Virus record (IMG/VR): IMGVR_UViG_3300035208_002255
Location: 128,001 to 169,027 of that record
Direction: 5' to 3' (one strand)
Source of the DNA: a virus
Taxonomy: Duplodnaviria > Heunggongvirae > Uroviricota > Caudoviricetes
Length of the DNA stretch: 41,027 bases
Shown: positions 12,033 to 40,542 of the stretch, in pieces
Numbering within the stretch: the first letter of the stretch is position 1
How the letters are laid out: each line of letters starts with the position of its first letter
Position numbers and translations under genes: made by a program
Notes under the pieces: model-generated
What the model was told of the DNA's origin: nothing
The model's database searches: none
What the model saw: the letters and a program-made list of their open reading frames with translations, nothing else

Positions 12033-12889
12033 AACTTATCTGGGGAACAGATTTCCATTTTAATTTTTTGCGAAATGATTTTGCTGTTCGTAAATTTGGA
12101 GAATATCTTTCAAAAGAATATCCTGATAATACTGGAATAATTATAACGGGTGATATTTCTGATGGAACACACATAGTTAATCACCTTAAAGAATTTTCTA
12201 GTAGTTTTACTAATCCGATTTATTTTGTCTTAGGTAACCATTCGTACTACGACGCATCATGGTCAAAAATAGATTCTTTGGTAACAAAGATTGTAGATGA
12301 AATTCCTCATCTATACTGGCTTAACCAAGGCATTCATGAAGTTTGTGGTCATGTTATCTGCGGCGTATGTGGATGGTACGATGCGTATCATGGAAACTCA
12401 AATTCAAATGTAGAGCTAAATGACTTTTATAATATCGCGGAATTACTTCCACAATCAAGGTATAGACCTTTACTTCTTGAAGAGATTCGAAGACGAGCTG
12501 GTTTTGAGGCAGACACTCTAGCAAGACACTTGAAAGAGGCTTGCAAAACTGACAATGAAGTAATCATTGTTGGTACTCACATTCCTCCATATGCTGAGAG
12601 TGCTTGGCATAACGGAAAGACTTCTGATAGGGAATGGGTTCCTTGGTTTAGTTCTGCAAGTACAGGAGCAACCCTGGATAGATTTGCTGAACATAATCCA
12701 GATAAAAAGTTCATTGTACTAACAGGACATTCTCACGGCTCTGGCATTTACCAGAGAAGAGACAACATGACAGTGTATACCGGTCCCGCTGTTTACGGAT
12801 TTCCCAATGTAAGCGGCTGGATTAATACCAAAGAAAGAAAGATCCAGGCGTATGGTCCTTCTGGCGAAAAGGTGGAACACAAGTATTAA
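12029..12889 (+). CDS. Calcineurin-like metallophosphoesterase
   Basis: TDFH, TGDISD, LGNH, THIPP and GHSH motifs. Confidence 0.88.
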   Translation: MKLIWGTDFHFNFLRNDFAVRKFGEYLSKEYPDNTGIIITGDISDGTHIVNHLKEFSSSFTNPIYFVLGNHSYYDASWSKIDSLVTKIVDEIPHLYWLNQGIHEVCGHVICGVCGWYDAYHGNSNSNVELNDFYNIAELLPQSRYRPLLLEEIRRRAGFEADTLARHLKEACKTDNEVIIVGTHIPPYAESAWHNGKTSDREWVPWFSSASTGATLDRFAEHNPDKKFIVLTGHSHGSGIYQRRDNMTVYTGPAVYGFPNVSGWINTKERKIQAYGPSGEKVEHKY

Positions 12890-13598
12890 CCCCACTGGTT
12901 ATTGGGGTTCTGAAAAAATGGATGGATTCCGTTGCTACTGGAATTCTACACAACTTCTAAGCCGAAACGGAAACGTAATATACGCACCCAGGTGGTTTAC
13001 AAAAGACTTTCCAAAGATTGCCTTGGATGGAGAGATATGGGCAGGACGAGGAAGTTTTGAGAGGGTTGCTTCAGTTGTAAAAGGTTCCAGGGAGAATGAT
13101 TGGCGCAGCGTAGTGTTTGCTGTGTTTGATGCCCCTGAACATAAAGATCTTTTCGAGGGACGCATACAGGAAGCTAAGCGAGTGTTGACTAATAAATCAG
13201 CACACGCTTTAGTGATTCCATTCTGGATGTGTACTTCACGAAAACAACTCCTAGAGAAGCTTGATGAGATTGTGAACGCAGGCGGTGAGGGAATCATGCT
13301 TCGCCAAGCGCGTTCCATTTACATCAATGATCGTTCTTATATCCTGCTCAAGGTTAAGAAGTGGTATGATGAGGAGGCTGTTGTAATCGGATACGAACCC
13401 AGCAAAGCTAACAAGAAACTCTGCGGCGCTTTGAAAGTGATAACGCCTGACGGAAGAATCTTCAAGGTAGCTGGGTTCGATATGGTGATCGCAAACAACC
13501 CACCACCAATTGGAACAATCATCACGTACAAATACACGGCGTTGTCTAAGGAAGGGATTCCAAGACCAGCTGTGTTTGAAAGGGTTCGGGATGTCTGA
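12852..13598 (+). CDS. lig: ATP-dependent DNA ligase (minimal)
   Basis: SEKMDG (motif I), LDGEI, VFDAP, EGIMLR, LLKVK and an OB-fold tail. Confidence 0.92.
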   Translation: MVLLAKRWNTSINPTGYWGSEKMDGFRCYWNSTQLLSRNGNVIYAPRWFTKDFPKIALDGEIWAGRGSFERVASVVKGSRENDWRSVVFAVFDAPEHKDLFEGRIQEAKRVLTNKSAHALVIPFWMCTSRKQLLEKLDEIVNAGGEGIMLRQARSIYINDRSYILLKVKKWYDEEAVVIGYEPSKANKKLCGALKVITPDGRIFKVAGFDMVIANNPPPIGTIITYKYTALSKEGIPRPAVFERVRDV

Positions 13599-13651
13599 AC
13601 AAACGAAACGTCTGAGCGTTGTAGGTTTTTACCTTCTGAAGAAAAGCTGAT

Positions 13652-13936
13652 ATGTCTAAGAAGTTCTATGTACTAGCTAAAGCGAATCTTCCAAACCGTA
13701 TTGAATTTGCTGACGAACTTATTACGGCATACAGTGATGTTGTATTTGATAATGGAAAGTTTAAGGGAGAGATTCTGGTAACTGGAGTGGTTCATGCTGA
13801 GACTGATGAGCAAACGCTTGGAGCGGTTATTACGGATTATCTCAAAGTGCATACGGATTTTGTTGTGATACGCAAGGTAGAAATCCGAGACAACGTAGTG
13901 GTTGAGAAATCAATTAGTTACCAGCGAACCGGGTAA
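13652..13936 (+). CDS. Hypothetical protein
   Basis: ORF track. Confidence 0.6.
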   Translation: MSKKFYVLAKANLPNRIEFADELITAYSDVVFDNGKFKGEILVTGVVHAETDEQTLGAVITDYLKVHTDFVVIRKVEIRDNVVVEKSISYQRTG

Positions 13937-13948
13937 AGAAAAAAGTTG

Positions 13949-13977
13949 TTGACATCTCCGACAAAGTGTGGTAAAAC
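13949..13977 (+). promoter_or_regulatory. Sigma70-type promoter for ku
   Basis: TTGACA-17-TAAAAC with TGTG extended -10 and upstream A-tract. Confidence 0.55.
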
Positions 13978-14035
13978 TGCCAAGGCTGTTTTGGAAAACA
14001 ATCACAAACTTTAGTTTTAGAAAGATACAAATATC

Positions 14036-14941
14036 ATGGCATCACGATCCGTAGCACGAGTGGTCCTCACCTTTGGAATGGTCTCTGTGGGCATCAAGCT
14101 CTATCTGAGCGCATCTGCCGAGCAGGTTGGTTTCAACATGATCAATCCGGAAACGGGTAATCGTGTCAAACAGAAGTTGGTGGATGCAGTTACCGAGAAG
14201 GAATTGAATCGTGGAGATACGGTGAAAGGTTATGAGTACCAAAAGGATAAGTACTTGACCTTCACGGAGGAAGAGGTTGCCAATATGCAGGCAGCCAAGC
14301 GCGATACATTGGACATTGCGGAGTTCGTTCCGCTCAGTGAGATTGACCCGTTGCATGTCGAGAAGACGTACTACACTGGTCCCGACAAGGGAATGGATCG
14401 TCAGTATCAACTTCTGTTCCAGACTCTTAAGACCGAAGGCAAGGCTGCAGTTGGTACGTGGGTTGCTCGTGGCAAGGAACATTTGGTTACGGTTCGCGCT
14501 TACGAACACGGACTTATCATTCACCAGATGTTCTACAATTCGGAAGTTCGAGCTTTCGATGATACCTGTGATAAGGTTACTCTGTCTACGGTTGAGTTGG
14601 CAATGGGCAAGATGCTCATTACTCAGTTTTCTAAGGATACGTTTGACAAGTCTAAATACCGAGATCAGTTCGTGGACAAGTTGAACAAGGCAGTTGAGAT
14701 CAAGCTTGCGGGTGGTGAAATCACTGAGGTCCAGATCAAGACTCCTACGTCCAGTATGGCTGACTCGCTTCGTGCATCCCTTGCTGCAATGGGCGTTCCC
14801 GAGGCTCAAATCAATGACATGATTGCCAAGGCAGAAGCCGAGGTTGGTGTGAGTGTTCCGGTTAGTGCTCCAGTTGTTGAAGTTGTGGCTGAACCGGTAA
14901 AGCCGGCTCGTAAGAGTCGGGCCAAGAAGGCAGTTGCCTAA
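14036..14941 (+). CDS. ku: Ku DNA end-binding protein (NHEJ)
   Basis: LTFGMVSVGIKLY, VKGYEY, IAEFVPLSEIDP, YRDQF, SLRASL and a basic C-terminal tail. Confidence 0.93.
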   Translation: MASRSVARVVLTFGMVSVGIKLYLSASAEQVGFNMINPETGNRVKQKLVDAVTEKELNRGDTVKGYEYQKDKYLTFTEEEVANMQAAKRDTLDIAEFVPLSEIDPLHVEKTYYTGPDKGMDRQYQLLFQTLKTEGKAAVGTWVARGKEHLVTVRAYEHGLIIHQMFYNSEVRAFDDTCDKVTLSTVELAMGKMLITQFSKDTFDKSKYRDQFVDKLNKAVEIKLAGGEITEVQIKTPTSSMADSLRASLAAMGVPEAQINDMIAKAEAEVGVSVPVSAPVVEVVAEPVKPARKSRAKKAVA

Positions 14942-20433: not shown

Positions 20434-21156
20434 ATGCCAAACCTTCGAGTTATTACCAATATGGATTGCAATGAGAAGTGTTACTTCTGTTACCAGAAGA
20501 TTAAGGATTCTCGGAGGTTGGATATCAACTTTCTAAGGTCCGAGATTGAAAGGTTCGACAGATTCAATAGGGCCGCAATATATGGTGGTGAGGCTACCAT
20601 TAGGGAAGACTTGCCAGAGTTCATTGAACTATGCGGCACAAAGAGTGATGTGGTATCTCTAACCTCCAATGGTACGCTGCTAAACCAGAGGAAGCTACAG
20701 CAATATAGAGATGCTGGTTTGGATGAATTGGGTATCTCTGTTCCAACCATTCAGCATTGGAGTGCGATGCGGGACATGCCTTGGGAAGACTTTCTCAAGA
20801 TCATCAAACTGGCTGTTAAGTACATCCCGAATGTCAGGATTAATGTTGTAGAAAACAAATACAACATGTCTGGTGACAACTACGAGATGTATGACATCAT
20901 CAAGTTCTTTACCCAGGAGCTGCACATTGGGGTATTGATCTGCCGCAACTTTACCAAGAAGTATCCAGACTTAGACTTGGGTCTTAGCGGGGCCGAGTTG
21001 CGGTGTGTTGAGAATGGGTGTGCGAAGTACACCTCCAGTGGTGCTGATGTATCATATTACGAACCTGTAAAGGTGTATAACGAAAGTGATTACATCGTGA
21101 GCCCTGTTGGAGTGTTCACTAACTGGATGAAGTTTGTAGCAACAAAGGATAAGTAA
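20434..21156 (+). CDS. Radical SAM protein
   Basis: CNEKCYFC (CxxxCxxC), GGEAT, TSNGTLL. Confidence 0.88.
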   Translation: MPNLRVITNMDCNEKCYFCYQKIKDSRRLDINFLRSEIERFDRFNRAAIYGGEATIREDLPEFIELCGTKSDVVSLTSNGTLLNQRKLQQYRDAGLDELGISVPTIQHWSAMRDMPWEDFLKIIKLAVKYIPNVRINVVENKYNMSGDNYEMYDIIKFFTQELHIGVLICRNFTKKYPDLDLGLSGAELRCVENGCAKYTSSGADVSYYEPVKVYNESDYIVSPVGVFTNWMKFVATKDK

Positions 21157-21179
21157 GTACGACCTTGTGTCGATTTTTA

Positions 21180-21207
21180 TTGACAGACTGGTCAGGTTGA
21201 GTATTAT
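21180..21207 (+). promoter_or_regulatory. Sigma70-type promoter directly upstream of motif copy 1
   Basis: TTGACA-16-TATTAT. Confidence 0.7.
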
Positions 21208-21216
21208 CCAAAGAAC

Positions 21217-21244
21217 AGCCGCACGGGGCTTCTAATACTGTGAC
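21217..21244 (+). repeat. Dispersed pseudoknot motif, copy 1
   Basis: AGCCGCACGGGGCTTCTAATACTGTGAC. Confidence 0.9.
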
Positions 21245-21460
21245 AAGACCGAGCTTGGTAGGAAGGTTTACTTACATCCACACTTGGTAATTGAGGTTCA
21301 CCACTTCAACTTCAAGTCATGATAAACATCGTCCCATATACGAACTTCCTCTGCGAACTCTTCGTATATGGGATTTGACGTTTTTCTGTAATCTCTCAAA
21401 GTATCGAACATCTGAGAAATTCTCTTCTTCATGGATTCCTGAGACATCGATCCAAGGATC
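21245..21460 (+). ncRNA. Candidate structured small RNA
   Basis: Hairpins TTGAGGTT/AACTTCAA (21291-21315) and a perfect 13-bp stem TCCCATATACGAA/TTCGTATATGGGA (21332-21373); pyrimidine-rich loops. Confidence 0.55.
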
Positions 21461-21468
21461 GTTTTCGC

Positions 21469-21497
21469 TTGCTTTTTCACTTCTTCTCTGGCATGAT
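21469..21497 (+). promoter_or_regulatory. Sigma70-type promoter directly upstream of motif copy 2
   Basis: TTGCTT-17-CATGAT with TGG extension. Confidence 0.55.
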
Positions 21498-21503
21498 TCG
21501 ACA

Positions 21504-21531
21504 AGCCGCGTGGGGCTTCTAATTCTACGAC
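21504..21531 (+). repeat. Dispersed pseudoknot motif, copy 2
   Basis: AGCCGCGTGGGGCTTCTAATTCTACGAC. Confidence 0.9.
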
Positions 21532-21565
21532 TCTGGCATGATCGTCCATTAAATCCTCCTGACCT

Positions 21566-21579
21566 ACCTACATGTAGGT
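21566..21579. promoter_or_regulatory. 14-bp palindrome, putative operator
   Basis: ACCTACATGTAGGT; a near copy lies at 21938-21951. Confidence 0.5.
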
Positions 21580-21617
21580 GTCTGTATGAGATATATCAAG
21601 AAAGGCATAAAGTTGCA

Positions 21618-21935
21618 ATGAAAAACGACACTGAAACGACAGAAACTACAACTGAAAATACGTCCAGTAGTCTCAGTATTTTTGGACAGACGATCGGTGA
21701 GCCTGCGAATCAATGGTCACAGCGTGTAAGTTATGGGTTTGTGACCATTGAGTTGGCAACTGATGGTAACTCATCGTATATTGCAACGGCATTTTGGCGT
21801 GGCACAAACAACGTCATTTCCGTAGGTGATTGGAAGGGTTCGGCACAAGAAGCTCTTGATGTAATTCAAAGCAACATTGCTTCGATGATCAAAGAGCAAA
21901 ATGTTATGTTGTCAATATCTTTTTCACTGTCCTGA
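21618..21935 (+). CDS. Hypothetical protein, paralog A
   Basis: MKN...IFGQ.I..P....R..YG....EL......YIATA..RG shared with the next gene. Confidence 0.7.
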   Translation: MKNDTETTETTTENTSSSLSIFGQTIGEPANQWSQRVSYGFVTIELATDGNSSYIATAFWRGTNNVISVGDWKGSAQEALDVIQSNIASMIKEQNVMLSISFSLS

Positions 21936-21937
21936 TT

Positions 21938-21951
21938 AACTACATGTAGGT
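21938..21951. promoter_or_regulatory. Second copy of the palindromic putative operator
   Basis: AACTACATGTAGGT, preceded by CCTGA as in the first copy. Confidence 0.5.
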
Positions 21952-21979
21952 AGAGAAATATATGTAGGTTGGAGAAATA

Positions 21980-22276
21980 ATGAAAAACGTAAAGCAGTGC
22001 AAGATTTTTGGGCAGCCGATTGAGGTACCTGGGCCTCGGCAAAACTCCCGTATTGAGTACGGTTTGTTTTCATTTGAGCTAGACTCGAATGATGGAGAGG
22101 CTTATATCGCAACGGCTCGTCTGCGGGGCTCCAAGCATATCGTAGCTATCTCGGACTACAAGAAAGCATCTGAAGCGCTTAGCGAGGTCGAAGAGAAGGT
22201 GAAGCAGATTCTTCAAGAGCAGAAGGAAATGATCGGCTCACCTCTTGGACGTTTGTTGAGCAATGTCTCAAGCTAA
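21980..22276 (+). CDS. Hypothetical protein, paralog B
   Basis: GGAG SD; similarity to 21618..21935. Confidence 0.75.
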   Translation: MKNVKQCKIFGQPIEVPGPRQNSRIEYGLFSFELDSNDGEAYIATARLRGSKHIVAISDYKKASEALSEVEEKVKQILQEQKEMIGSPLGRLLSNVSS

Positions 22277-22293
22277 TCACTTACACAAAATAG

Positions 22294-22488
22294 TTGGGCC
22301 AGGTTTATACTGCGCATTATGTCCAAAAGCAATATGTTGATGGAGATTCTTTCAGTGGTATCAGTGGTTTGTTTTCAATTATTGGTGGCATCATAGCATG
22401 GCCATCTATAGTTGTTTTATATGCCATAATGATACCACTAAAGAAGTTTCTACAGCACAGAGTAAAGTCTAATTGCCAAAGAGGTTGA
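22294..22488 (+). CDS. Possible small membrane protein
   Basis: Hydrophobic stretch; poor start context. Confidence 0.35.
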   Translation: MGQVYTAHYVQKQYVDGDSFSGISGLFSIIGGIIAWPSIVVLYAIMIPLKKFLQHRVKSNCQRG

Positions 22489-22489
22489 A

Positions 22490-22786
22490 ATGAAGATCTA
22501 TCTTGATGATGAGCGAGCGCCACCCGAGGGATGGATTCTTGCGCGAAGCGTTCCAGTCCTTTGTCACCTACTCCAAACACATCAGGTCACTCACCTCTCT
22601 CTTGACCATGACCTTGGGGAAGATGAGATGACTGGGTATGACTTCATGCGGTGGTTGGAAGCTCAGGTGTTTAGCGGAACAATCAAAGAGATTCCTGAGA
22701 TTACTTTCCATACAGCAAACCCAACTGGCCGAAAGAATATGGAGTTGGCTCTGGCTAACATTCATAAGATGATGAGTCAATGTTAA
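22490..22786 (+). CDS. Cyclic-phosphate processing receiver domain protein
   Basis: KIYLDDER.PP.GW, LSLDHDLG, TGYD, HTANP.G. Confidence 0.85.
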   Translation: MKIYLDDERAPPEGWILARSVPVLCHLLQTHQVTHLSLDHDLGEDEMTGYDFMRWLEAQVFSGTIKEIPEITFHTANPTGRKNMELALANIHKMMSQC

Positions 22787-23673
22787 ACACAGGGTTCTCA
22801 GAAATTACCGAAGAACGTTTGCTTTACAAAGGTAAAGATCCTTGGTACGTTGAGGTTGCGATCACTGGTAGGTGCAATTTCCATTGCACCTATTGCAATA
22901 GGTTTTCTCAAAACCTTGACATGGAGAAGTTTAAAGCTTGGATTGATACCCAACAAAACCAGTTCAGGCATTTGCAAATTACCGGTGGTGAGCCCACTGT
23001 TCATCCTGAGTTTGAACAAATCGTTCAACTCTGCAGGTCGAGAACAAAGGTTCTTGGATTATCAACAAACGGATCGTGGTCATTAGAAAAGTATCTACAC
23101 CTTCCTGTTGATATGTTTTCAATCTCGTTTGATGATTACGATTTAGATATCCTTCGGTCAAGAGGTTACAACAATCCTGAGCACATTCTTAACTGTATAA
23201 AAGAACTTGCAAAGGTTCGATACGTTAATATAGGATTGGTAATTGACGAACACAATGTTTCAAGAGCTGAAGCTATTATAGATTTCCTACTTCAGCTAGG
23301 CGTATCTGATGTGAAGCTTTCAATATCAACACGAGCATTGGATACGATGCCTGTGTTTACAAAATTATATGAAGGTTATCCAATTCTATCCTACAGGGTA
23401 AACAACTTCAAAAATCAAAAACCAATGAGAGGGTACCCGGCTCCTCGATGTCACATTGCCAAGAATGACATTACTATTGTTGGTGACAAACACTATCCTT
23501 GTCTTGTTTATTTTAGGGAAAAAGGATCTGCAATCGGAAATCTTGATGATGAATCTATGCTTCAAGATAGAGAAGCTTGGAGTGAGTCTCACGATTGTTT
23601 AAAGGATCCAATCTGTAGTAAGTTTTGCATGGATTTCAAATGTGACTTCAATCACGCAAAAGGTGAACAATGA
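22780..23673 (+). CDS. Radical SAM protein (paralog of 30240..31235)
   Basis: CNFHCTYC, TGGEPT, STNGS; C-terminal HYPCLVY.RE.G..IG and DPIC..FC.D. Confidence 0.9.
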   Translation: MLNTGFSEITEERLLYKGKDPWYVEVAITGRCNFHCTYCNRFSQNLDMEKFKAWIDTQQNQFRHLQITGGEPTVHPEFEQIVQLCRSRTKVLGLSTNGSWSLEKYLHLPVDMFSISFDDYDLDILRSRGYNNPEHILNCIKELAKVRYVNIGLVIDEHNVSRAEAIIDFLLQLGVSDVKLSISTRALDTMPVFTKLYEGYPILSYRVNNFKNQKPMRGYPAPRCHIAKNDITIVGDKHYPCLVYFREKGSAIGNLDDESMLQDREAWSESHDCLKDPICSKFCMDFKCDFNHAKGEQ

Positions 23674-24050
23674 ACCCATCTATAGAAGAACATTCAATTG
23701 AAGCATGGAACTCAGAGCTTCGCTACAAGAAAGAACGCCCTTTAGATAGAGCGTTGCTCGTCATACATAATGGGAAGGCTCTTTATCTTGACCATATTGG
23801 ACCTGGGATTGAATACTACTTATCCGAATGCACTCATAAGGATGATGAATTCATCGAACCCAACGGGGTCTATATCTGGGAGGGCAAATTAATCTCGAAG
23901 GTGATCACGTACTTTGAAGGGGATCATGATTGTGAAGAAGAGCTTAATGGAACATTACGATTAGCAACACTTGACGAATGGCAAGCATATATTAATGACG
24001 AATATATCTGGGATAGAAGCGAATGGCTTTTACCAGATGAAGCAACCTAA
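23670..24050 (+). CDS. Hypothetical protein
   Basis: ATGA overlap. Confidence 0.7.
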   Translation: MNPSIEEHSIEAWNSELRYKKERPLDRALLVIHNGKALYLDHIGPGIEYYLSECTHKDDEFIEPNGVYIWEGKLISKVITYFEGDHDCEEELNGTLRLATLDEWQAYINDEYIWDRSEWLLPDEAT

Positions 24051-24078
24051 TTGGACCTGGGATTGAATACTACTTATC
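23796..24078 (+). repeat. 29-nt exact direct repeat (23796-23824 and 24050-24078)
   Basis: ATTGGACCTGGGATTGAATACTACTTATC twice. Confidence 0.9.
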
Positions 24079-24213
24079 TGATGACTTTTACTAGATTAAG
24101 AAACCCTATTCATGATTCAAATACTTTTCTAAACATATTAGTAACACTACTCCAAGAATTCTTGTTGATAAAATCCTTTTGTTTTGCTAATTGTTCTTCT
24201 AGAAAGATTTTGG

Positions 24214-24242
24214 TTGACAAAAGCTTCCCGTACTGGTACCAT
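24214..24242 (+). promoter_or_regulatory. Sigma70-type promoter
   Basis: TTGACA-17-TACCAT with TGG extension. Confidence 0.75.
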
Positions 24243-24275
24243 TGGGGGTTACTTGTGAACTTTGGAGTAAAAAGA

Positions 24276-25139
24276 ATGTCAGAGAAAATGGGACGCAAGA
24301 TGCCGGAATCCGCTTATACCAAGGCTAAGAGAATTGCAGAAGAAACCATGGATGCAATTCATGCATTAAAGTACAAGACTCCTAGTGGTAGGACCCTATC
24401 ACTGGATAAGCTTGTTACGCCAGCTGTTCGACGATCAAAGATGTACAAACCTGATTGGAATGAAGAGATCAGTGCCGAGAAGAATACATCTCCAAAGATC
24501 TCTGTTACCAGAGAATCAACTTTGGAGGCGGCGTATCGTTTGTCTGAGGACAATGCTTGTGTCCTAAACTTTGCCAGTGCGAAGCATCCGGGTGGGGGAT
24601 TTCTTCGAGGGGCTATTGCTCAGGAGGAATCCCTTGCTCGTTCTAGTGCATTGTATCATACATTGATTGAGCATCCTGAATACTATGAAGAGAATAAGCG
24701 TTCAGGTCGCAATGGTCCCGGTATCTATACGGACTATATAATCTATTCTCCTAACGTTCCTGTGATTAGAAATGATCGCGGGGATTGGTTGGAGGATCCT
24801 TACATCATGAGTGTCATTACTTCACCAGCGCCTAACCGTACCGCAATTCTTGAAGACTCAGATGATAGTACGATTACCGAGGATCAAGACAAGACTCTTG
24901 AAGAAGCTTTCAAGGCAAGAACGCTTAGAGTTCTAAATCTCATGGCCGCCAATGGTCACCGGAGTATTGTACTTGGCGCTTGGGGTTGTGGAATCTTTGG
25001 CAATGATCCTTGGAAGGTTGCGAAGATGTTTAAGGAAGCTCTTAAGGTTTGCCATTACTTCGATGAAGTGGTGTTCGCCATCTACGATTCACCAGACTCC
25101 GAAACATACAAAGCATTTGAAAAGGTATTTGCTTCTTAA
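24276..25139 (+). CDS. Bacterial-type poly(ADP-ribose) glycohydrolase (TIGR02452-like macrodomain)
   Basis: LNFASAKHPGGGFLRGAIAQEESLARSS (GGG-x6-QEE) and LGAWGCGIFGN; start after the promoter and GGAG SD. Confidence 0.9.
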   Translation: MSEKMGRKMPESAYTKAKRIAEETMDAIHALKYKTPSGRTLSLDKLVTPAVRRSKMYKPDWNEEISAEKNTSPKISVTRESTLEAAYRLSEDNACVLNFASAKHPGGGFLRGAIAQEESLARSSALYHTLIEHPEYYEENKRSGRNGPGIYTDYIIYSPNVPVIRNDRGDWLEDPYIMSVITSPAPNRTAILEDSDDSTITEDQDKTLEEAFKARTLRVLNLMAANGHRSIVLGAWGCGIFGNDPWKVAKMFKEALKVCHYFDEVVFAIYDSPDSETYKAFEKVFAS

Positions 25140-25147
25140 GGTGAATT

Positions 25148-25585
25148 ATGAAAGCTAGAAGATGTTTTGTAAGTAACTCTTCATCCAGTTCATTTGTTTT
25201 CATTGGCAACAATGGTGACTGTTCTCGTCGTGTGAAAGCTTTAGTTGAGGATGGTATTCTTATCTTGGGCACCCAAGGTGAGAATGAATTCGGCTGGGGA
25301 CCTGAAACAATTTCTGATGTCTTTAGTATGATTAACTTTGCTAAGTTGCAAGTTATCAATGGTAGCAATCCTCACTGGGGTGTTATGCTTGATGATGTTA
25401 TCAAAGAAGCAACTGGGTGTACAGAAATCATCTGGGACGAAAAACTTACCGATGAAGGATACATCGATCACCAATCATCCTCAAGCGATGGTTCTAATAC
25501 AGAAATCTTTGCGGATGAAGATACGTTGAGAAGGTTCTTGTTCTGTACAGATTCAGAAATCGTATTAGATAACGACAACCACTGA
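25148..25585 (+). CDS. Conserved phage protein with FVSNSSSSSF N-terminus
   Basis: MK.R..FVSNSSSSSF and IDHQS motifs. Confidence 0.75.
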   Translation: MKARRCFVSNSSSSSFVFIGNNGDCSRRVKALVEDGILILGTQGENEFGWGPETISDVFSMINFAKLQVINGSNPHWGVMLDDVIKEATGCTEIIWDEKLTDEGYIDHQSSSSDGSNTEIFADEDTLRRFLFCTDSEIVLDNDNH

Positions 25586-30239: not shown

Positions 30240-31235
30240 ATGAAACTCGAAGAGATTGGTTTTTATACTCTATGCGATGAACGTGCAGCTCACTCCAATG
30301 GTGAGTCTCCTATGTGGCGATGTGAAATGATCCTCACATCAGCCTGCAATTTCAAGTGCCCGTATTGCCGCCCTCTTCGTGAGGATTGCCGTGGCACTAT
30401 GCCTGTAGAGCGTGCTCTTTACACTCTTGGCCAATGGTGTGACCAGGGTCTAAAGAATATCAGATTCTCTGGCGGTGAACCTACACTATACAAAGACCTT
30501 GTTACTCTAGTAAAGTATTGCAAGCAACGCGGCGTGGAGCGTATTGCAATCTCATCCAATGGTTCTGCTTCGCGTGAATTGTATGCTGAGCTAATCGAAG
30601 CTGGCGTTAATGACTTCAGTATTTCATTGGATGCTTGTTGCGCAGAGGATGCAAACAAGATGTCCGGTGGTGTATTGAAGGTCATCGACAATGTTTCAGA
30701 GAACATTCGGTGGCTTGCGTCTAAGACCTATGTCACAGCGGGCGTTGTTCTTACCAATGAGAACTACAAAGAGATGAATAACATCATTCGCTTTGCAGAC
30801 TCTTTGGGATGTGCAGATGTTCGAATCATCTCAGCGGCTCAAGAGAACTTCCTATTGGAAGGTGTACTTGGCATTGAGCAAGAGCTGCTTGATAAGCATC
30901 CTATTCTAAAGTACAGAGCGAATAACATTCGCAATGGACGCGGGGTCCGTGGTTTAAGCGATGGAGATCCTCATACATGTTATCTAATGTATGATGACTC
31001 TGTGGTTGCAGGGGATCAACATTTCCCTTGTATTATTCACCTACGCGAAGGTGGCGCACCCATTGGGAAGATTGGTCCGAACATGAGGCAAGAGCGCATT
31101 GAATTCTTGCAGAAGCATGATCCTCACAAGGATCCTATTTGCAAAGCTAATTGCCTGGACGTATGTTCAGATCACCTTAGGAAGTGTGATTCTTTTCGGA
31201 CGGACAAGAGCCAATCAGCGCACAAATCTCCTTAA
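30240..31235 (+). CDS. Radical SAM protein
   Basis: CNFKCPYC, SGGEPT, SSNGS; C-terminal HFPCIIH.RE.G..IG and DPIC..NC.D. Confidence 0.9.
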   Translation: MKLEEIGFYTLCDERAAHSNGESPMWRCEMILTSACNFKCPYCRPLREDCRGTMPVERALYTLGQWCDQGLKNIRFSGGEPTLYKDLVTLVKYCKQRGVERIAISSNGSASRELYAELIEAGVNDFSISLDACCAEDANKMSGGVLKVIDNVSENIRWLASKTYVTAGVVLTNENYKEMNNIIRFADSLGCADVRIISAAQENFLLEGVLGIEQELLDKHPILKYRANNIRNGRGVRGLSDGDPHTCYLMYDDSVVAGDQHFPCIIHLREGGAPIGKIGPNMRQERIEFLQKHDPHKDPICKANCLDVCSDHLRKCDSFRTDKSQSAHKSP

Positions 31236-32040
31236 ATTTATCATGCTTACGATCCATGTGAATAGAACTATCTTGGTAAATGAAATCTAAAAACCTTCTA
31301 CCAACTCTATTACCATGGAGGACAAGTTGTTTAATTTCAGATCCTTTCTTCGCATGACATATACTTGTCTTTATTCCAAGATGTAATAGTTTATCACGCA
31401 ACGTCTCTGTAAAGTCTTGTGTACCTAAAATAGAGATAGCAATTTGGCCAGAAGAAAAACTAAGAGAGCCATCTCCATCGAAATATCCTCTTACAAAATG
31501 TGAGAGTAATTCATCTGGTACACAAGTTGGAAACTTTACTTTCAGACTTTTAGCTTTAACTAATCCATAACTTTCAAGTTGTTGGCTGATATGTTTACTT
31601 GATATAGTAAGACAGTAACTATCTTTACGAAAATAATCTTTGCCATTATCTTTAAACCATTTACCTTTCCTCTTTAAAAGAGGTCTATCACATTTGTAAA
31701 TCAACTTACAAAGTTTAGTTAACAAACTAACATCTTGTTCACTAAGTATTAGGCGAACACAAGTCATTTCCGTGCTATTACAACCATCAGCATACAAAAT
31801 ACCAAGAAAATAAGCTTTCTCTGGTGTGTTGATAGTATCAAAGAAATCTTCATAAACATCATATGTACGATTTGCTTGACTATGATCTCTGGTTTTAATT
31901 TTTTCCTTCTTAAGAAGGTAATGAATAGACCCAGGGTTAACTCCATATTCTGTCCCTAGTTCTAAAGTACTTTTACCAGAAAGATATTTCTCAATTATCT
32001 CTTGTGAGAATCGTTTATCAAGTTTGCGTTTCTTTTCCAT
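31177..32040 (-). mobile_element. Free-standing LAGLIDADG homing endonuclease with N-terminal HTH
   Basis: AYFLGILYADG and HFVRGYFDGDGS motifs; only minus-strand gene; AT-rich; AAGGA SD before ATG 32040. Confidence 0.88.
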
Positions 32041-32177
32041 AATCACTATCCTTATTTTAAAGAGATGTAACTAATAACAGCTTTAAAAGCTCCTCGACAA
32101 AATCTGGAAGAGATTTTGTAGGCGAGAAACTACAACAACTAACTCTTTGGTAATAAAATCAATGCATACAACTCAAG

Positions 32178-36619: not shown

Positions 36620-36978
36620 GGGGCAGACTGGTTTCGACGTGGCTAATGAGGATAGAGTGAACATGCAAGCGGGAGTATGTTACCGCTTTGAACAATGACA
36701 TGCCGTATTAACTGCCAACGACAACGCAGACCTCGCCATCGCTGCCTAATAAGCAGTAGGCGACATCCCGAGACAAGGAGTCTTAGTAATCAAGGGGTGC
36801 CAACCCACAAGGACTGGTTTTTTGGAATGATGTTACCAAAGAATGAGATTAATATCTAGGGTTGCTAAGTTTGCCGAATTACTTAGCGGGGCTTCTATCG
36901 CCTTAAGATAGATAAGCATGTGAGCGAGCTTTGTAGTACGTAGTCGCGGACCGGGGGTTCGACTCCCCCGATGCTCCA
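36620..36978 (+). ncRNA. ssrA: tmRNA (one-piece), tag peptide ANDNADLAIAA
   Basis: 5' GGGGCAGACTGGTTTCGAC; 3' T arm CGGGGGTTCGACTCCCCCG and TGCTCCA with a G3-U pair; tag frame 36714-36749 after TTAACT. Confidence 0.95.
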
Positions 36979-36996
36979 CTAAATAGAGTGTTGAAT

Positions 36997-37285: not shown

Positions 37286-37438
37286 ATGAACTCCAAGTAC
37301 GACATAGATTATCTCAGAGCTTTTACAGATGTTTTGGCAGCTGGTAATCCCAATACCAAATCAATGCATCAAATTGTAGAGCGTTATTACAGTGCCTTAG
37401 ATCAAGCTCCCAAGAAGAAAGAATACAACAATGTTTGA
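37286..37438 (+). CDS. Small hypothetical protein
   Basis: ATG 37286; overlaps the start of the ATPase gene. Confidence 0.5.
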   Translation: MNSKYDIDYLRAFTDVLAAGNPNTKSMHQIVERYYSALDQAPKKKEYNNV

Positions 37439-38897
37439 ACGTGACTTTCGTGAGGAAAATAACAAACTCCGTGATAAGCTTTCAGAGGCTTCCTCCTACA
37501 TTAAAGAGCTTGAAGGTTTCATTGAGGAGGTAAAGGACGGGCCAAGCTCTTACGCTTACGTTATTCAGACTCATGGTAATAGAGTCACTGTCAGTACCAA
37601 CAATGGTATTGTTGAAGTTCCCAATACTCTTAAGGCTCAGATGCCTAAGATTGGTGATGGTGTTATGTTTGGTGGTCTAGGAATCATCACTGGGCCAGCG
37701 GCACAAGAGATTGTTATTGGAGATCTTTTTGTTGTAACAGCTCACGGTAATGGTTGGGCAGAAATTAGTGTTGATAGCTCTCCTCGCCGAGTTGTCTGCT
37801 CTCTTCAGGTTGAAGATGGTGATCGTGTTCTTATGGATACGAATAATACCATTGCCCTAAAGAACTACGGCCAAGATACAACGAAGTTCTCTTTTGATGG
37901 AGATACCGGAGTTCAGTGGGATGACATCGGAGGTTTGGAGAATGCCAAGCTAACTTTACAGGAAGCTATTGAACTTCCTAGTAAGCATCCCGATCTATTC
38001 AAGAAGTACAATAAGCGCCTTCCTAAGGGAGCAATGTTGTACGGTCCCAGTGGGACTGGAAAGACTTTGCTTGCAAAGGCTGCCGCCACTTCCCTTGCGC
38101 AGACTCATGGTAAATCTGCAAAGAGCACTGGCTTTATTTATGTTAAGGGACCAGAGCTTCTAAATATGTGGGTTGGTAACACTGAAGCAGAGATTCGTGG
38201 ATTGTTTGCTCGTGGTCGAGACCATTTCAAGAAGAATGGATATCCTGCAATTCTATTCATCGACGAAGCTGATGCTCTCCTCGGGGCTCGTGGCGGATCT
38301 TCTCATACATCTCAAGGAACTCTAGCCAACACTATTGTTCCTCAGTTCCTAAGCGAGATGGATGGTCTTGAAGATTCTGGAGTCTTTGTTCTGCTTGCAA
38401 CGAACCGTCCAGATTTTTTGGATGCTGCCGTAACTCGTGATGGTCGTATTGATCGAAAGGTTGCAGTACTACGTCCGAATGAGGATGCCGCAAAATCTGT
38501 TCTTCGAATTCATATGAAGAACCGTCCCATCTTTGCTGGAGCTGAGTTGGAAACCCTTCTCGATCATTCAATTGCGTATCTGTATGGAGAGAAGTTCTCG
38601 TTGTATGAAGTAACTTACAACAGGGCTAATCCTCAGAAAAGAACTATGCTTCTCAAGGATCTTGTCAATGGTGCAATGATTGCTGGTATTGCAGAGCGTG
38701 CGGCTAGTATTGCAATGCAGCGAGATATTGAGAATGCAATGAAGGGCGTAAAGGAAGCTGATGGTATTTCTATTAGTAATATTTACGAAGCCATCGATGC
38801 GGTGTATGAGGAGAACCTTCACATTAATCACGATCTAGCCATTCAAGAATTCGGTGAATCCCTGGATGGTGACATCACTAACATTCAGCGAGTATAA
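37431..38897 (+). CDS. ARC/Mpa-like (proteasome-type) AAA+ ATPase
   Basis: N-terminal coiled coil and OB-like region; WDDIGGL, YGPSGTGKT, VKGPELLN..VG.TE, LFIDEAD, TIVPQFLSEMDG, ATNRPD..D.A..R.GRID. Confidence 0.88.
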   Translation: MFERDFREENNKLRDKLSEASSYIKELEGFIEEVKDGPSSYAYVIQTHGNRVTVSTNNGIVEVPNTLKAQMPKIGDGVMFGGLGIITGPAAQEIVIGDLFVVTAHGNGWAEISVDSSPRRVVCSLQVEDGDRVLMDTNNTIALKNYGQDTTKFSFDGDTGVQWDDIGGLENAKLTLQEAIELPSKHPDLFKKYNKRLPKGAMLYGPSGTGKTLLAKAAATSLAQTHGKSAKSTGFIYVKGPELLNMWVGNTEAEIRGLFARGRDHFKKNGYPAILFIDEADALLGARGGSSHTSQGTLANTIVPQFLSEMDGLEDSGVFVLLATNRPDFLDAAVTRDGRIDRKVAVLRPNEDAAKSVLRIHMKNRPIFAGAELETLLDHSIAYLYGEKFSLYEVTYNRANPQKRTMLLKDLVNGAMIAGIAERAASIAMQRDIENAMKGVKEADGISISNIYEAIDAVYEENLHINHDLAIQEFGESLDGDITNIQRV

Positions 38898-38898
38898 T

Positions 38899-39096
38899 AT
38901 GTGGGCTCAAAAAAAGCGACATGGTAATTATGGTGGGAACAATAATGATGCAACCCAACAACAAGCCGTTCCCAAACTTCGTGGTACCGGAGATATTGAA
39001 GCTCTTCTAAAAGAAAGCCAATCCAATGATAAGTTGGAAAAGCAAGAGAAAGAACGCGGATACGAAAATGGGAGTAGTTGCGGATGTGGATGGTAA
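38899..39096 (+). CDS. 65-aa hydrophilic protein ending SSCGCGW (Pup-like size and composition)
   Basis: ATG 1 nt after the ATPase stop; low-complexity polar sequence. Confidence 0.65.
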   Translation: MWAQKKRHGNYGGNNNDATQQQAVPKLRGTGDIEALLKESQSNDKLEKQEKERGYENGSSCGCGW

Positions 39097-39419
39097 TCAA
39101 AACCATTTTGGTTTTAGGAATCGCAGCTGGATTCATTTCACTGACGGTTACTAAATCCACAATCTTCGAACCCTTCAGGGACTTCTTCTTCCATCACTCT
39201 GAAAAGAGTGCCGTGATGAAGTTTCTGTATGACTTAGTGACGTGCCCATATTGTTTCAGTCATTGGGTATCATTGGTAATGGTCTGTATTTGGCAACCAA
39301 GGATTGTTAATTGTGGTTGTATTTGGGTTGACCTTGGAGTAAGTTGGTTCGTGATGGTTGGTATTGCATCTTACGCTTGGGGAATCTTCTTTAAGATCAC
39401 TTCAGAAAATTCGGAATGA
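39090..39419 (+). CDS. DUF1360-family membrane protein
   Basis: IFEPFR...LVTCPYCFSHWVS. Confidence 0.75.
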   Translation: MVIKTILVLGIAAGFISLTVTKSTIFEPFRDFFFHHSEKSAVMKFLYDLVTCPYCFSHWVSLVMVCIWQPRIVNCGCIWVDLGVSWFVMVGIASYAWGIFFKITSENSE

Positions 39420-39597: not shown

Positions 39598-40542
39598 ATG
39601 AAGATATTCGATGTTTCAAATTCAAAAGCTTCTTTATTGGATAAATCCAAGCTATATGGTCCCAAAGAGAATGATATTGTAAGATACCTTAAACAATACG
39701 CTCCTGAGTTTGGTCATCAATTTGTACAGTCCGCAGAAGATGCTGATGTAATCTTCACCAACGATATCTTTCCTGAACCTTTTCTTGGTAAGAGGAAGGT
39801 GAAGCGGATGGATGGAGTATTTTCTCGTGCAGATGTTGTACATCGTAATGAAGCTTTGAATCGTGCCGCCCAAGAAGCTGATAGCGTTATCTTCATCTCA
39901 GAGTATTCCAGAGAATCGTATTTCAACTTATACGATCCTAAGAGGGATACAATCAAGAGCTTTACGGTTATTCCAAATGAAGTTGATCCGACAGTTTTCT
40001 ATCCAAGCACTGTTATTTCAGAACATCCTAGAGAGATGATAGCTGTTGCTTCTGATTGGATCAGACCTGAAAAAAGACTTAATGACTTGTTGTTTCTAGC
40101 TAGAATTGCACCTGAAACTAACTTCACCTTGATTGGTAAGGTACCTGAGATCAGTTATCCTAAAAACATTATACTAAAAGGATACGTTGATACGCCCGAA
40201 AAGCTAGGCGATGCTCTTCGTATGGCGGATGGAATGGTATCTTTGTTTTACAAAGACGCATATCCAAAGACCATGGTACAAGCAAAGTACTGTGGACTAC
40301 CTGTAATTTTTGCCGGGTCTGGTGGTCAGACTCAAATGGGTGTTGCAGGCGTATGCATTACTGATACTGACAAGTATTCATTTGACAATTCTGTTCCAAG
40401 ATTAGATCCCTTCGAGATTGAAGTTGGATGGAAAGATTTCAGCGGTTACTTTCCAGGACTGAAACAGTTTGCAATGCAATACAAAGGTCGAAATGACTTC
40501 GTTGGAATGCTTAGAAGTTATTTCGAAAAACTTCAGGGATAA
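39598..40542 (+). CDS. Glycosyltransferase family 4 (GT-B)
   Basis: ADSVIFISEYSR, VIPNEVDP..F, W.RPEKRL, DAYPKTMVQAKYCGLPVI. Confidence 0.8.
   Translation: MKIFDVSNSKASLLDKSKLYGPKENDIVRYLKQYAPEFGHQFVQSAEDADVIFTNDIFPEPFLGKRKVKRMDGVFSRADVVHRNEALNRAAQEADSVIFISEYSRESYFNLYDPKRDTIKSFTVIPNEVDPTVFYPSTVISEHPREMIAVASDWIRPEKRLNDLLFLARIAPETNFTLIGKVPEISYPKNIILKGYVDTPEKLGDALRMADGMVSLFYKDAYPKTMVQAKYCGLPVIFAGSGGQTQMGVAGVCITDTDKYSFDNSVPRLDPFEIEVGWKDFSGYFPGLKQFAMQYKGRNDFVGMLRSYFEKLQG

Follow-up and report, generated by a model that had tools for sequence, protein, structure and literature searches.

The final 41 kb of a 169,027-base Caudoviricetes record (IMG/VR record IMGVR_UViG_3300035208_002255, positions 128,001 to 169,027), a stretch of 41,027 nucleotides referred to here as the window, encodes a motor of the ARC/Mpa type, a small protein resembling the modifier Pup and a membrane protein of the uncharacterised family DUF1360. 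The three genes form a conserved module. This gene set resembles the ARC-Pup system in its motor and probably in its mode of recognition, but departs from the Pup-proteasome system in the docking terminus GQYL, the modifier terminus G[EQ], the ligase and the 20S core. We tentatively favour a Pup-derived adaptor as the role of the small protein, with its dithiol undergoing exchange with the CxxC of DUF1360 and, transiently, with client proteins. The features of the window that bear on this proposal are listed in Table 1.

Table 1. Coordinates of the cassette genes and other features, numbered from the first base of the window.
Feature	Position	Strand	Description
Transfer-messenger RNA (tmRNA), phage-encoded	36620-36981	+	Rfam RF00023, 98.5 bits; missed by ARAGORN; tag ANDNADLAIAA
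50-codon open reading frame (ORF), probable N-terminal extension of the ATPase	37286..37438	+	Contig comparison and N-termini of homologues
ARC/Mpa-like AAA+ ATPase	37431..38897	+	488 aa, ending ITNIQRV
Pup-like small protein	38899..39096	+	65 aa, polar, one base after the ATPase, ending SSCGCGW
DUF1360 membrane protein with CPYC	39084..39419	+	Overlaps the small ORF; three predicted transmembrane helices
Radical SAM genes (three)	20434, 22780, 30240		Family matches

The initial annotation, made from the letters of the sequence, had placed the ATPase, the small protein and the membrane protein correctly, and its coupling of the ATPase to a small cysteine-tailed ORF held up when the gene neighbourhoods of related ATPases were surveyed. 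Among 110 non-redundant loci of the ATPase clade, drawn from viral contigs and GTDB genomes, 35 carried the complete cassette of ATPase, small protein and DUF1360 (21 from viruses and 14 from bacteria, 12 of the bacterial ones bearing titles of candidate phyla radiation (CPR) lineages). In 34 of the 35 cassettes the ATPase and DUF1360 were separated by a small ORF that had cysteine among its 14 C-terminal residues, and in the remaining one the small ORF had an internal cluster. Control loci were those of non-clade AAA proteins, including the generic CDC48-like ones that were all a metagenome scan returned; none contained DUF1360, none of 118 matched the small-protein profile (best 6.1 bits), and a next ORF with a CxC or CC tail was found in 0 of 100. 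No fourth gene recurred in the cassettes, the largest shared cluster beyond antisense shadows comprising 5 of the 35 loci. A locus search of the viral contigs with single sequences returned nothing. Within the CPR the cassette is rare. Among 401 genomes, Pfam DUF1360 had matches in 7, of which three showed internal stops and two were of the solo type. Two Brevundimonas phages in culture, Polewnik and Strzyga, also have a gene for a clade ATPase, in Polewnik with neither partner gene, and in a 462-kb phage record 0.25 kb separates the ATPase from a DUF1360-like match on the same strand (L260, ON529863; LR756500).

The ATPase was identified as an ARC/Mpa relative that lacks the docking tail, as initially proposed, by family match, fold comparison and its C-terminus. 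Its best NCBIfam model was TIGR03689 (pup_AAA, ARC; 276.5 bits over residues 7-465, below the cut-off of 504.75). The AlphaFold model (mean predicted local distance difference test score, pLDDT, 84.7) contained an N-terminal helix (residues 6-36), a pair of beta domains (39-148), an AAA module and a terminal strand. Fold comparison of this model gave Mpa for each of the best seven matches (Z 27.9-31.6), with PAN next at 26.6; residues 37-488 superposed on Mpa 97-587, the best match (Z 31.6) extending over 420 residues with a root-mean-square deviation of 6.5. ARC/Mpa (TIGR03689; PDB 5kzf, 7px9, 5kwa) and the phage protein have in common the coiled coil, both beta domains, the AAA module and the C-terminal domain, and the coiled-coil profiles aligned at 91%. 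In the description of Mpa in PMC8755798, which names these parts coiled coil, double OB, AAA and beta-grasp domain, GQYL is the motif that docks on the 20S core. The phage ATPase, by contrast, ends on the last strand of its C-terminal domain without GQYL. Twelve ARC proteins, all ending GQYL, had 20-24 residues past the common C-terminal point, whereas the 36 cassette ATPases had 0-12, with one at 33, and none of the 120 nearest homologues terminated in GQY[LM].

Phylogenetic analysis (FastTree; 137 sequences, 321 columns, with UBact-linked ATPases, two unpublished genomes and sequences of fewer than 200 matched residues left out) grouped 112 clade members (support 0.88) as sister to 12 actinobacterial ARC proteins (0.98), against 13 other AAA proteins. 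The phage ATPase differs from ARC/Mpa in scoring under the family cut-off, in ending 20-24 residues earlier, in belonging to a separate clade, and in that no 20S or ligase genes were found with it. The Walker A and B motifs, pore loop, sensor 1 and arginine finger were all intact, and the protein may use ATP to unfold substrates that bear the Pup-like protein.

The coding sequence of the ATPase probably begins upstream of the first position assigned to it. The base at 37425 was missing in contigs from two other sequencing runs (X3, X5), the window having one extra, and without this base the ORF at 37286 reads in frame with the ATPase to give a protein of 536 aa. Homologues P0005-P0008 start with the segment encoded at 37286, P0005 being 69% identical over 46 residues. 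Because the other contigs restore the frame and these homologues begin with the same segment, the true start is probably 37286. Of the two candidate starts of DUF1360, TTG 39078 and ATG 39084, the second is likelier, a GGAG lying 9 nt upstream of it.

The small protein has a basic, glycine-rich N-terminus, a short amphipathic segment and a C-terminal CGC dithiol. Its ORF did not arise by chance: two direct homologues were 65% and 58% identical to it. A profile built from 150 database relatives found the window ORF as the sole match among the 829 ORFs of the record (E 1.4e-7), and a search of 1.84 billion representatives with the profile of 37 small proteins taken from the loci brought up 256 clusters at E<=1e-3; ESM Atlas gave no usable match. 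When the family profile was compared with 177,635 PDB sequences, Pup ranked first, second, fifth and seventh (E 0.016, 0.02), aligned over Pup residues 1-51. Residues 21-51 of Pup form the helix that binds the Mpa coiled coil, and the N-terminus of Pup acts as the threader (PMC8755798). Comparison of the small-protein profile with 20 Pup-like ORFs (one spurious) by hhalign gave probabilities of 89-92% over 18-20 columns, and column-shuffled profiles scored at most 15.7 against Pup, compared with 32.9 for the real profile. Single sequences matched the Pup models sparsely: 2 of 37 with Pfam (best E 0.058) and 1 of 37 with TIGR03687 (E 0.032), with no match for the window protein in the Pfam and NCBIfam searches. 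One phage small protein, from a locus without the ATPase, matched Pfam Pup at E 1.1e-4.

The family resembles Pup (PF05639, TIGR03687) in size (56-89 aa), in a disordered N-terminus, in a gene position beside an ARC-type ATPase and, with borderline significance, in the helix motif D-x-x-L-x-E-I-D-x-x-L. It differs in replacing the segment after Pup residue 51 with a variable stretch and a cysteine pair, and in having DUF1360, rather than PafA/Dop, as its partner. The likeness amounts to one short amphipathic motif and is persuasive mainly because an ARC relative adjoins. The initial description of the small protein as Pup-like was supported over the Mpa-binding segment at the level of the family, which is conserved beside the ATPase; the window member itself is divergent.

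The C-terminal tails were counted in the best 150 relatives from the small-protein profile search. None ended in G[GST][EQ] or G[EQ]. The last 20 residues contained two cysteines in 134 relatives and four in 16, with no other number occurring, and among the 37 locus-derived small proteins 30 tails had two and seven had four. The arrangement was mostly CxC (124/150), with CC and CxxC also present. The CGCGW terminus to which the initial annotation had drawn attention turned out not to be a family motif, only 3 of the 150 relatives ending so. Cysteine was the final residue in 60 relatives; in the other 90 further residues followed the last cysteine, at least three of them in 25. Cysteines in twos or fours are more in keeping with a resolvable dithiol than with a stable C-terminal tag. 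Paralogous small proteins, two or more per locus, were seen around the cassette at L008, L011, L016, L025, L183, L284 and L295, some with longer tails rich in cysteine and histidine.

The CPYC motif of the third gene and its overlap with the small ORF were confirmed, its initial assignment to DUF1360 was supported, and the family belongs to the conserved set. The window protein itself scored 19.5-20 bits against DUF1360 (PF07098), just under the cut-off of 21, and matched phrog_781 at E 3.7e-8; all 36 cassette members matched PF07098 at E<=1 (best 3.6e-9), and ESM Atlas returned DUF1360 clusters only. Both CxxC cysteines were invariant in the 36 members and were followed by a near-invariant SHW. 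The structural model (pLDDT 95.5) consisted of three long and two short helices; the CxxC opens the helix at 55-70, the second transmembrane helix. The loop before the CxxC contained 4.9 K/R, compared with 0.9 in the next loop, and by the positive-inside rule the CxxC is therefore likely to face the cytoplasm.

DUF1360 also occurs in other contexts. The 57 viral loci found with the DUF1360 profile comprised 20 by the ATPase, 18 flagged by motif as following a thioredoxin, and 19 with neither; 11 of 12 upstream thioredoxin candidates checked matched Pfam thioredoxin families. These thioredoxins have hydrophobic N-termini and seemingly represent one lineage, so that the support they lend to a redox role is weak and in part discordant. 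Viral contigs in which DUF1360 directly follows such a thioredoxin were L288, L296, L298, L303, L306, L313, L316 and L318-L321. Solo DUF1360 was found in 37 of 401 actinobacterial genomes, with no consistent partner gene in the 26 loci parsed of 30.

The pattern of gene loss links the parts of the small protein to different partners. Thirteen Bacteroidales loci, nested inside the cassette clade, kept the coiled coil and the Pup-like protein and had neither the cysteine tail nor DUF1360. In a 30-member, mostly acidobacterial ATPase subclade the coiled coil was replaced and there was no adjacent small gene; a genome-wide search found no small protein in 11 acidobacterial genomes, although this search was weak and also missed two Bacteroidales members. 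Conversely, the ATPase was not found in two phage records rated complete (L299:2339-3282, G447; L279:3-1168, G446) that kept DUF1360 and a Pup-like protein with CxC; the search for the ATPase in these records had no positive control, and one locus lies near a contig end. These paired losses suggest that the helix is tied to the coiled coil and the tail to DUF1360, each case being a single event. At Bacteroidales loci including L186, L190 and L202, the clade ATPase was followed by a 55-aa Pup-like protein without cysteines or G[EQ].

The genes of canonical pupylation were not found with the cassette. The PafA/Dop ligase family, for which the Corynebacterium glutamicum control gave the expected signal, and the 20S/HslV family (PF00227) were each not detected in the virus record or in any of the 14 cassette genomes, which are metagenome-assembled and may be incomplete. 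The search for these genes to which the initial annotation had pointed thus detected none, and likewise neither ligase nor 20S/HslV was found in any of 14 Bacteroidales genomes with the cysteine-less variant. Besides a clade ATPase, a Parcubacteria genome (G015; L212, L261-L263) encodes three homologues of the Pup ligase at scattered sites; it has no PF00227 match and no adjacent small gene.

Precedents exist for parts of this arrangement. UBact likewise pairs a Pup-like modifier with an ARC-like ATPase outside the Actinobacteria. It ends in G[EQ] and is accompanied by ligase and proteasome genes. No NCBIfam model named UBact was matched by any member of the small-protein family at E<=10. In C. 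glutamicum, ARC acts without a proteasome in disassembling pupylated ferritin (PMC8223512); ARC-type unfolding without a 20S core would be common to both systems, but Pup, PafA and Dop are intact there and the tag is isopeptide-bonded. Iyer et al. (2008) gave the G[EQ] terminus as the Pup signature and also described, in the sections concerned, proteasome-free, membrane-linked Pup ligases and not this gene set (PMC2588565). A term search of a 2025 review (PMC12288473) found no passage on UBact, phage or Pup-like proteins, and no description of the gene set was found in the open-access literature, subscription journals and supplements lying outside the search.

In the favoured model, the helix of the small protein would dock on the coiled coil of the proteasome-free unfoldase, by analogy to Pup and Mpa, and its N-terminus would enter the pore. 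The cysteine pair would exchange disulfides with the CxxC of DUF1360, through thiol-disulfide rather than metal chemistry, and a transient mixed disulfide would hold putative clients while the motor unfolds or disassembles them. A second cysteine beside the first is expected to resolve a mixed disulfide. In Erv2, a C-terminal CxC is known to act as a shuttle disulfide in exchange with a CxxC (PMC4019985), and by this analogy paired cysteines would suit attack and resolution, and a durable tag less well. The likeness to Erv2 and to the VKOR/DsbB thiol oxidoreductases lies in a flexible terminal dithiol and a CxxC at a helix start; it differs in that no homology was shown, and in that DUF1360 is without a known cofactor and is coupled to an unfoldase. 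More speculatively, DUF1360 may, as a membrane thiol oxidoreductase, stand in for PafA/Dop, charging and recycling a Pup homologue that would capture proteins through disulfides and deliver them to a proteasome-free ARC motor, which would make this a second chemistry on the Pup scaffold, in phages and CPR bacteria.

A number of results weigh against a Pup-derived redox adaptor. The likeness of the small-protein family to Pup is borderline (E 0.016-0.02, about 18-20 columns); the reversed profile scored 24.8 against Pup (69% probability) beside 32.9 (92%) for the real one, heptad-block shuffled profiles reached 32.2, and the three-sequence subfamily of the window, in which the motif is shortened, gave no direct alignment to Pup (0.7%). 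The two-cysteine tail is partly built in because the profile selects CxC, though this is not obviously so for the absence of three, and several phage loci without DUF1360 carry knuckle-like tails of three or four cysteines, suggestive of metal binding. Each paired loss is one event on the tree. Fold searches with DUF1360 gave no Foldseek match at E<=0.001, a best VIA Z of 6.7 and no PDB sequence relative, and hhalign against 25 VKORs aligned 17 columns, the CxxC helix start only, at 20%. The thioredoxins beside DUF1360, by appearance from one phage lineage, are likely exported, which is discordant with a cytoplasm-facing CxxC. Finally, two patterns for selenocysteine-containing DUF1360 gave only 26 off-frame chance matches in the viral contigs, a result that neither confirms nor excludes such forms.

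The main rival, which we consider less probable, is a zinc clasp, in which one zinc ion would be coordinated jointly by two cysteines of the tail and the two of DUF1360; the small protein would then anchor the unfoldase at the membrane, or DUF1360 would itself be the client that is pulled. A CxC together with a partner's cysteine pair is the arrangement of the CD4/CD8-Lck clasp (PMC12198760). The joint loss of tail and DUF1360 in Bacteroidales and their joint retention without the ATPase would suit such a clasp, as would the nearly invariant histidine three residues after the CxxC and the self-contained CxCx4C or CxxC..H tails of the phage variants without DUF1360. It leaves unexplained, however, why three-cysteine tails are missing yet four-cysteine tails occur; the latter, able to fill a site alone, still adjoin DUF1360 in 7 of 7 loci, and the thioredoxin neighbours in the second context of DUF1360 also count against it.

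The initial annotation had proposed a non-canonical system of tagging and unfolding that uses cysteine chemistry instead of PafA ligation. In a stable version of it, DUF1360 would replace the ligase and durably join the small protein to targets by disulfide or thioester, so marking them for the ATPase. The broad outline of the proposal gained from the conservation of the gene set and from the failure to find a ligase or 20S core, but the tail counts disfavour a durable C-terminal tag, and we regard this version as improbable. A Pup-like body whose conjugation tail is replaced by cysteines, the absence of PafA/Dop in 14 of 14 cassette genomes and the terminal cysteine of 60 of 150 relatives would agree with it; yet a neighbouring second cysteine would, on general dithiol chemistry, resolve the bond, the C-terminal carboxylate is not a conserved handle because 90 of 150 relatives have residues after the last cysteine, and no E1-like or other enzyme recurs in the cassette neighbourhoods. 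Still more doubtful is a module that feeds a host protease or host ARC, in which the tail and DUF1360 would place the motor at the membrane near an FtsH-like protease and versions without the ATPase would borrow the host's ARC. The two ATPase-less phage records, one of whose small proteins is the Pfam Pup match, point that way, but one of these records begins 0.7 kb ahead of DUF1360, so that an ATPase could have been cut off, protease genes do not recur around the cassette, and neither PF00227 nor PF01434 was found in the virus record. The further suggestion, that a radical SAM enzyme takes the small protein as its precursor peptide, fared worst and appears very improbable. The window does contain three radical SAM genes, but the closest lies at a distance of 6 kb, none of the 35 cassette neighbourhoods contained an ORF of more than 200 aa with a CxxxCxxC motif, and the small gene is tied instead to the ATPase and DUF1360.

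Pup has been known solely as a tag that PafA attaches through an isopeptide bond. If the small protein is indeed a redox adaptor, the ARC-Pup recognition module could be driven by chemistry other than ligation, phages and CPR bacteria would carry their own unfolding system, and phages would gain a redox-switched means of taking host complexes apart. It would also give a first function for DUF1360, of which the gene set offers a direct test, and all three genes are small enough for reconstitution in the laboratory.

The record has 127-base inverted terminal repeats and 40 tRNA calls. Its completeness is uncertain despite its rating, because no terminase family and no T4-type capsid family was matched, the capsid control having given no signal anywhere either. 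Thioredoxin and FtsH protease (PF01434) families were likewise not matched in the record. The phage-encoded tmRNA sits 0.3-0.4 kb upstream of the cassette; none of the 35 cassette loci had a tmRNA alongside, so this gene is not part of the cassette. Promoter-like sites were not enriched (8, against 10.5 in shuffled sequences). Elsewhere in the window (12852-14941, 20434-25139, 30240-32046 and 39598-40542) were an ATP-dependent DNA ligase near Ku, the three radical SAM genes, a PARG-type hydrolase, a LAGLIDADG endonuclease and a glycosyltransferase. Several tandem ORFs sharing the N-terminal motif MK[IV]RxGF[VI]SNSS were seen at 68794-93883 of the same record (G000 C1), with one more in the window at 25148.

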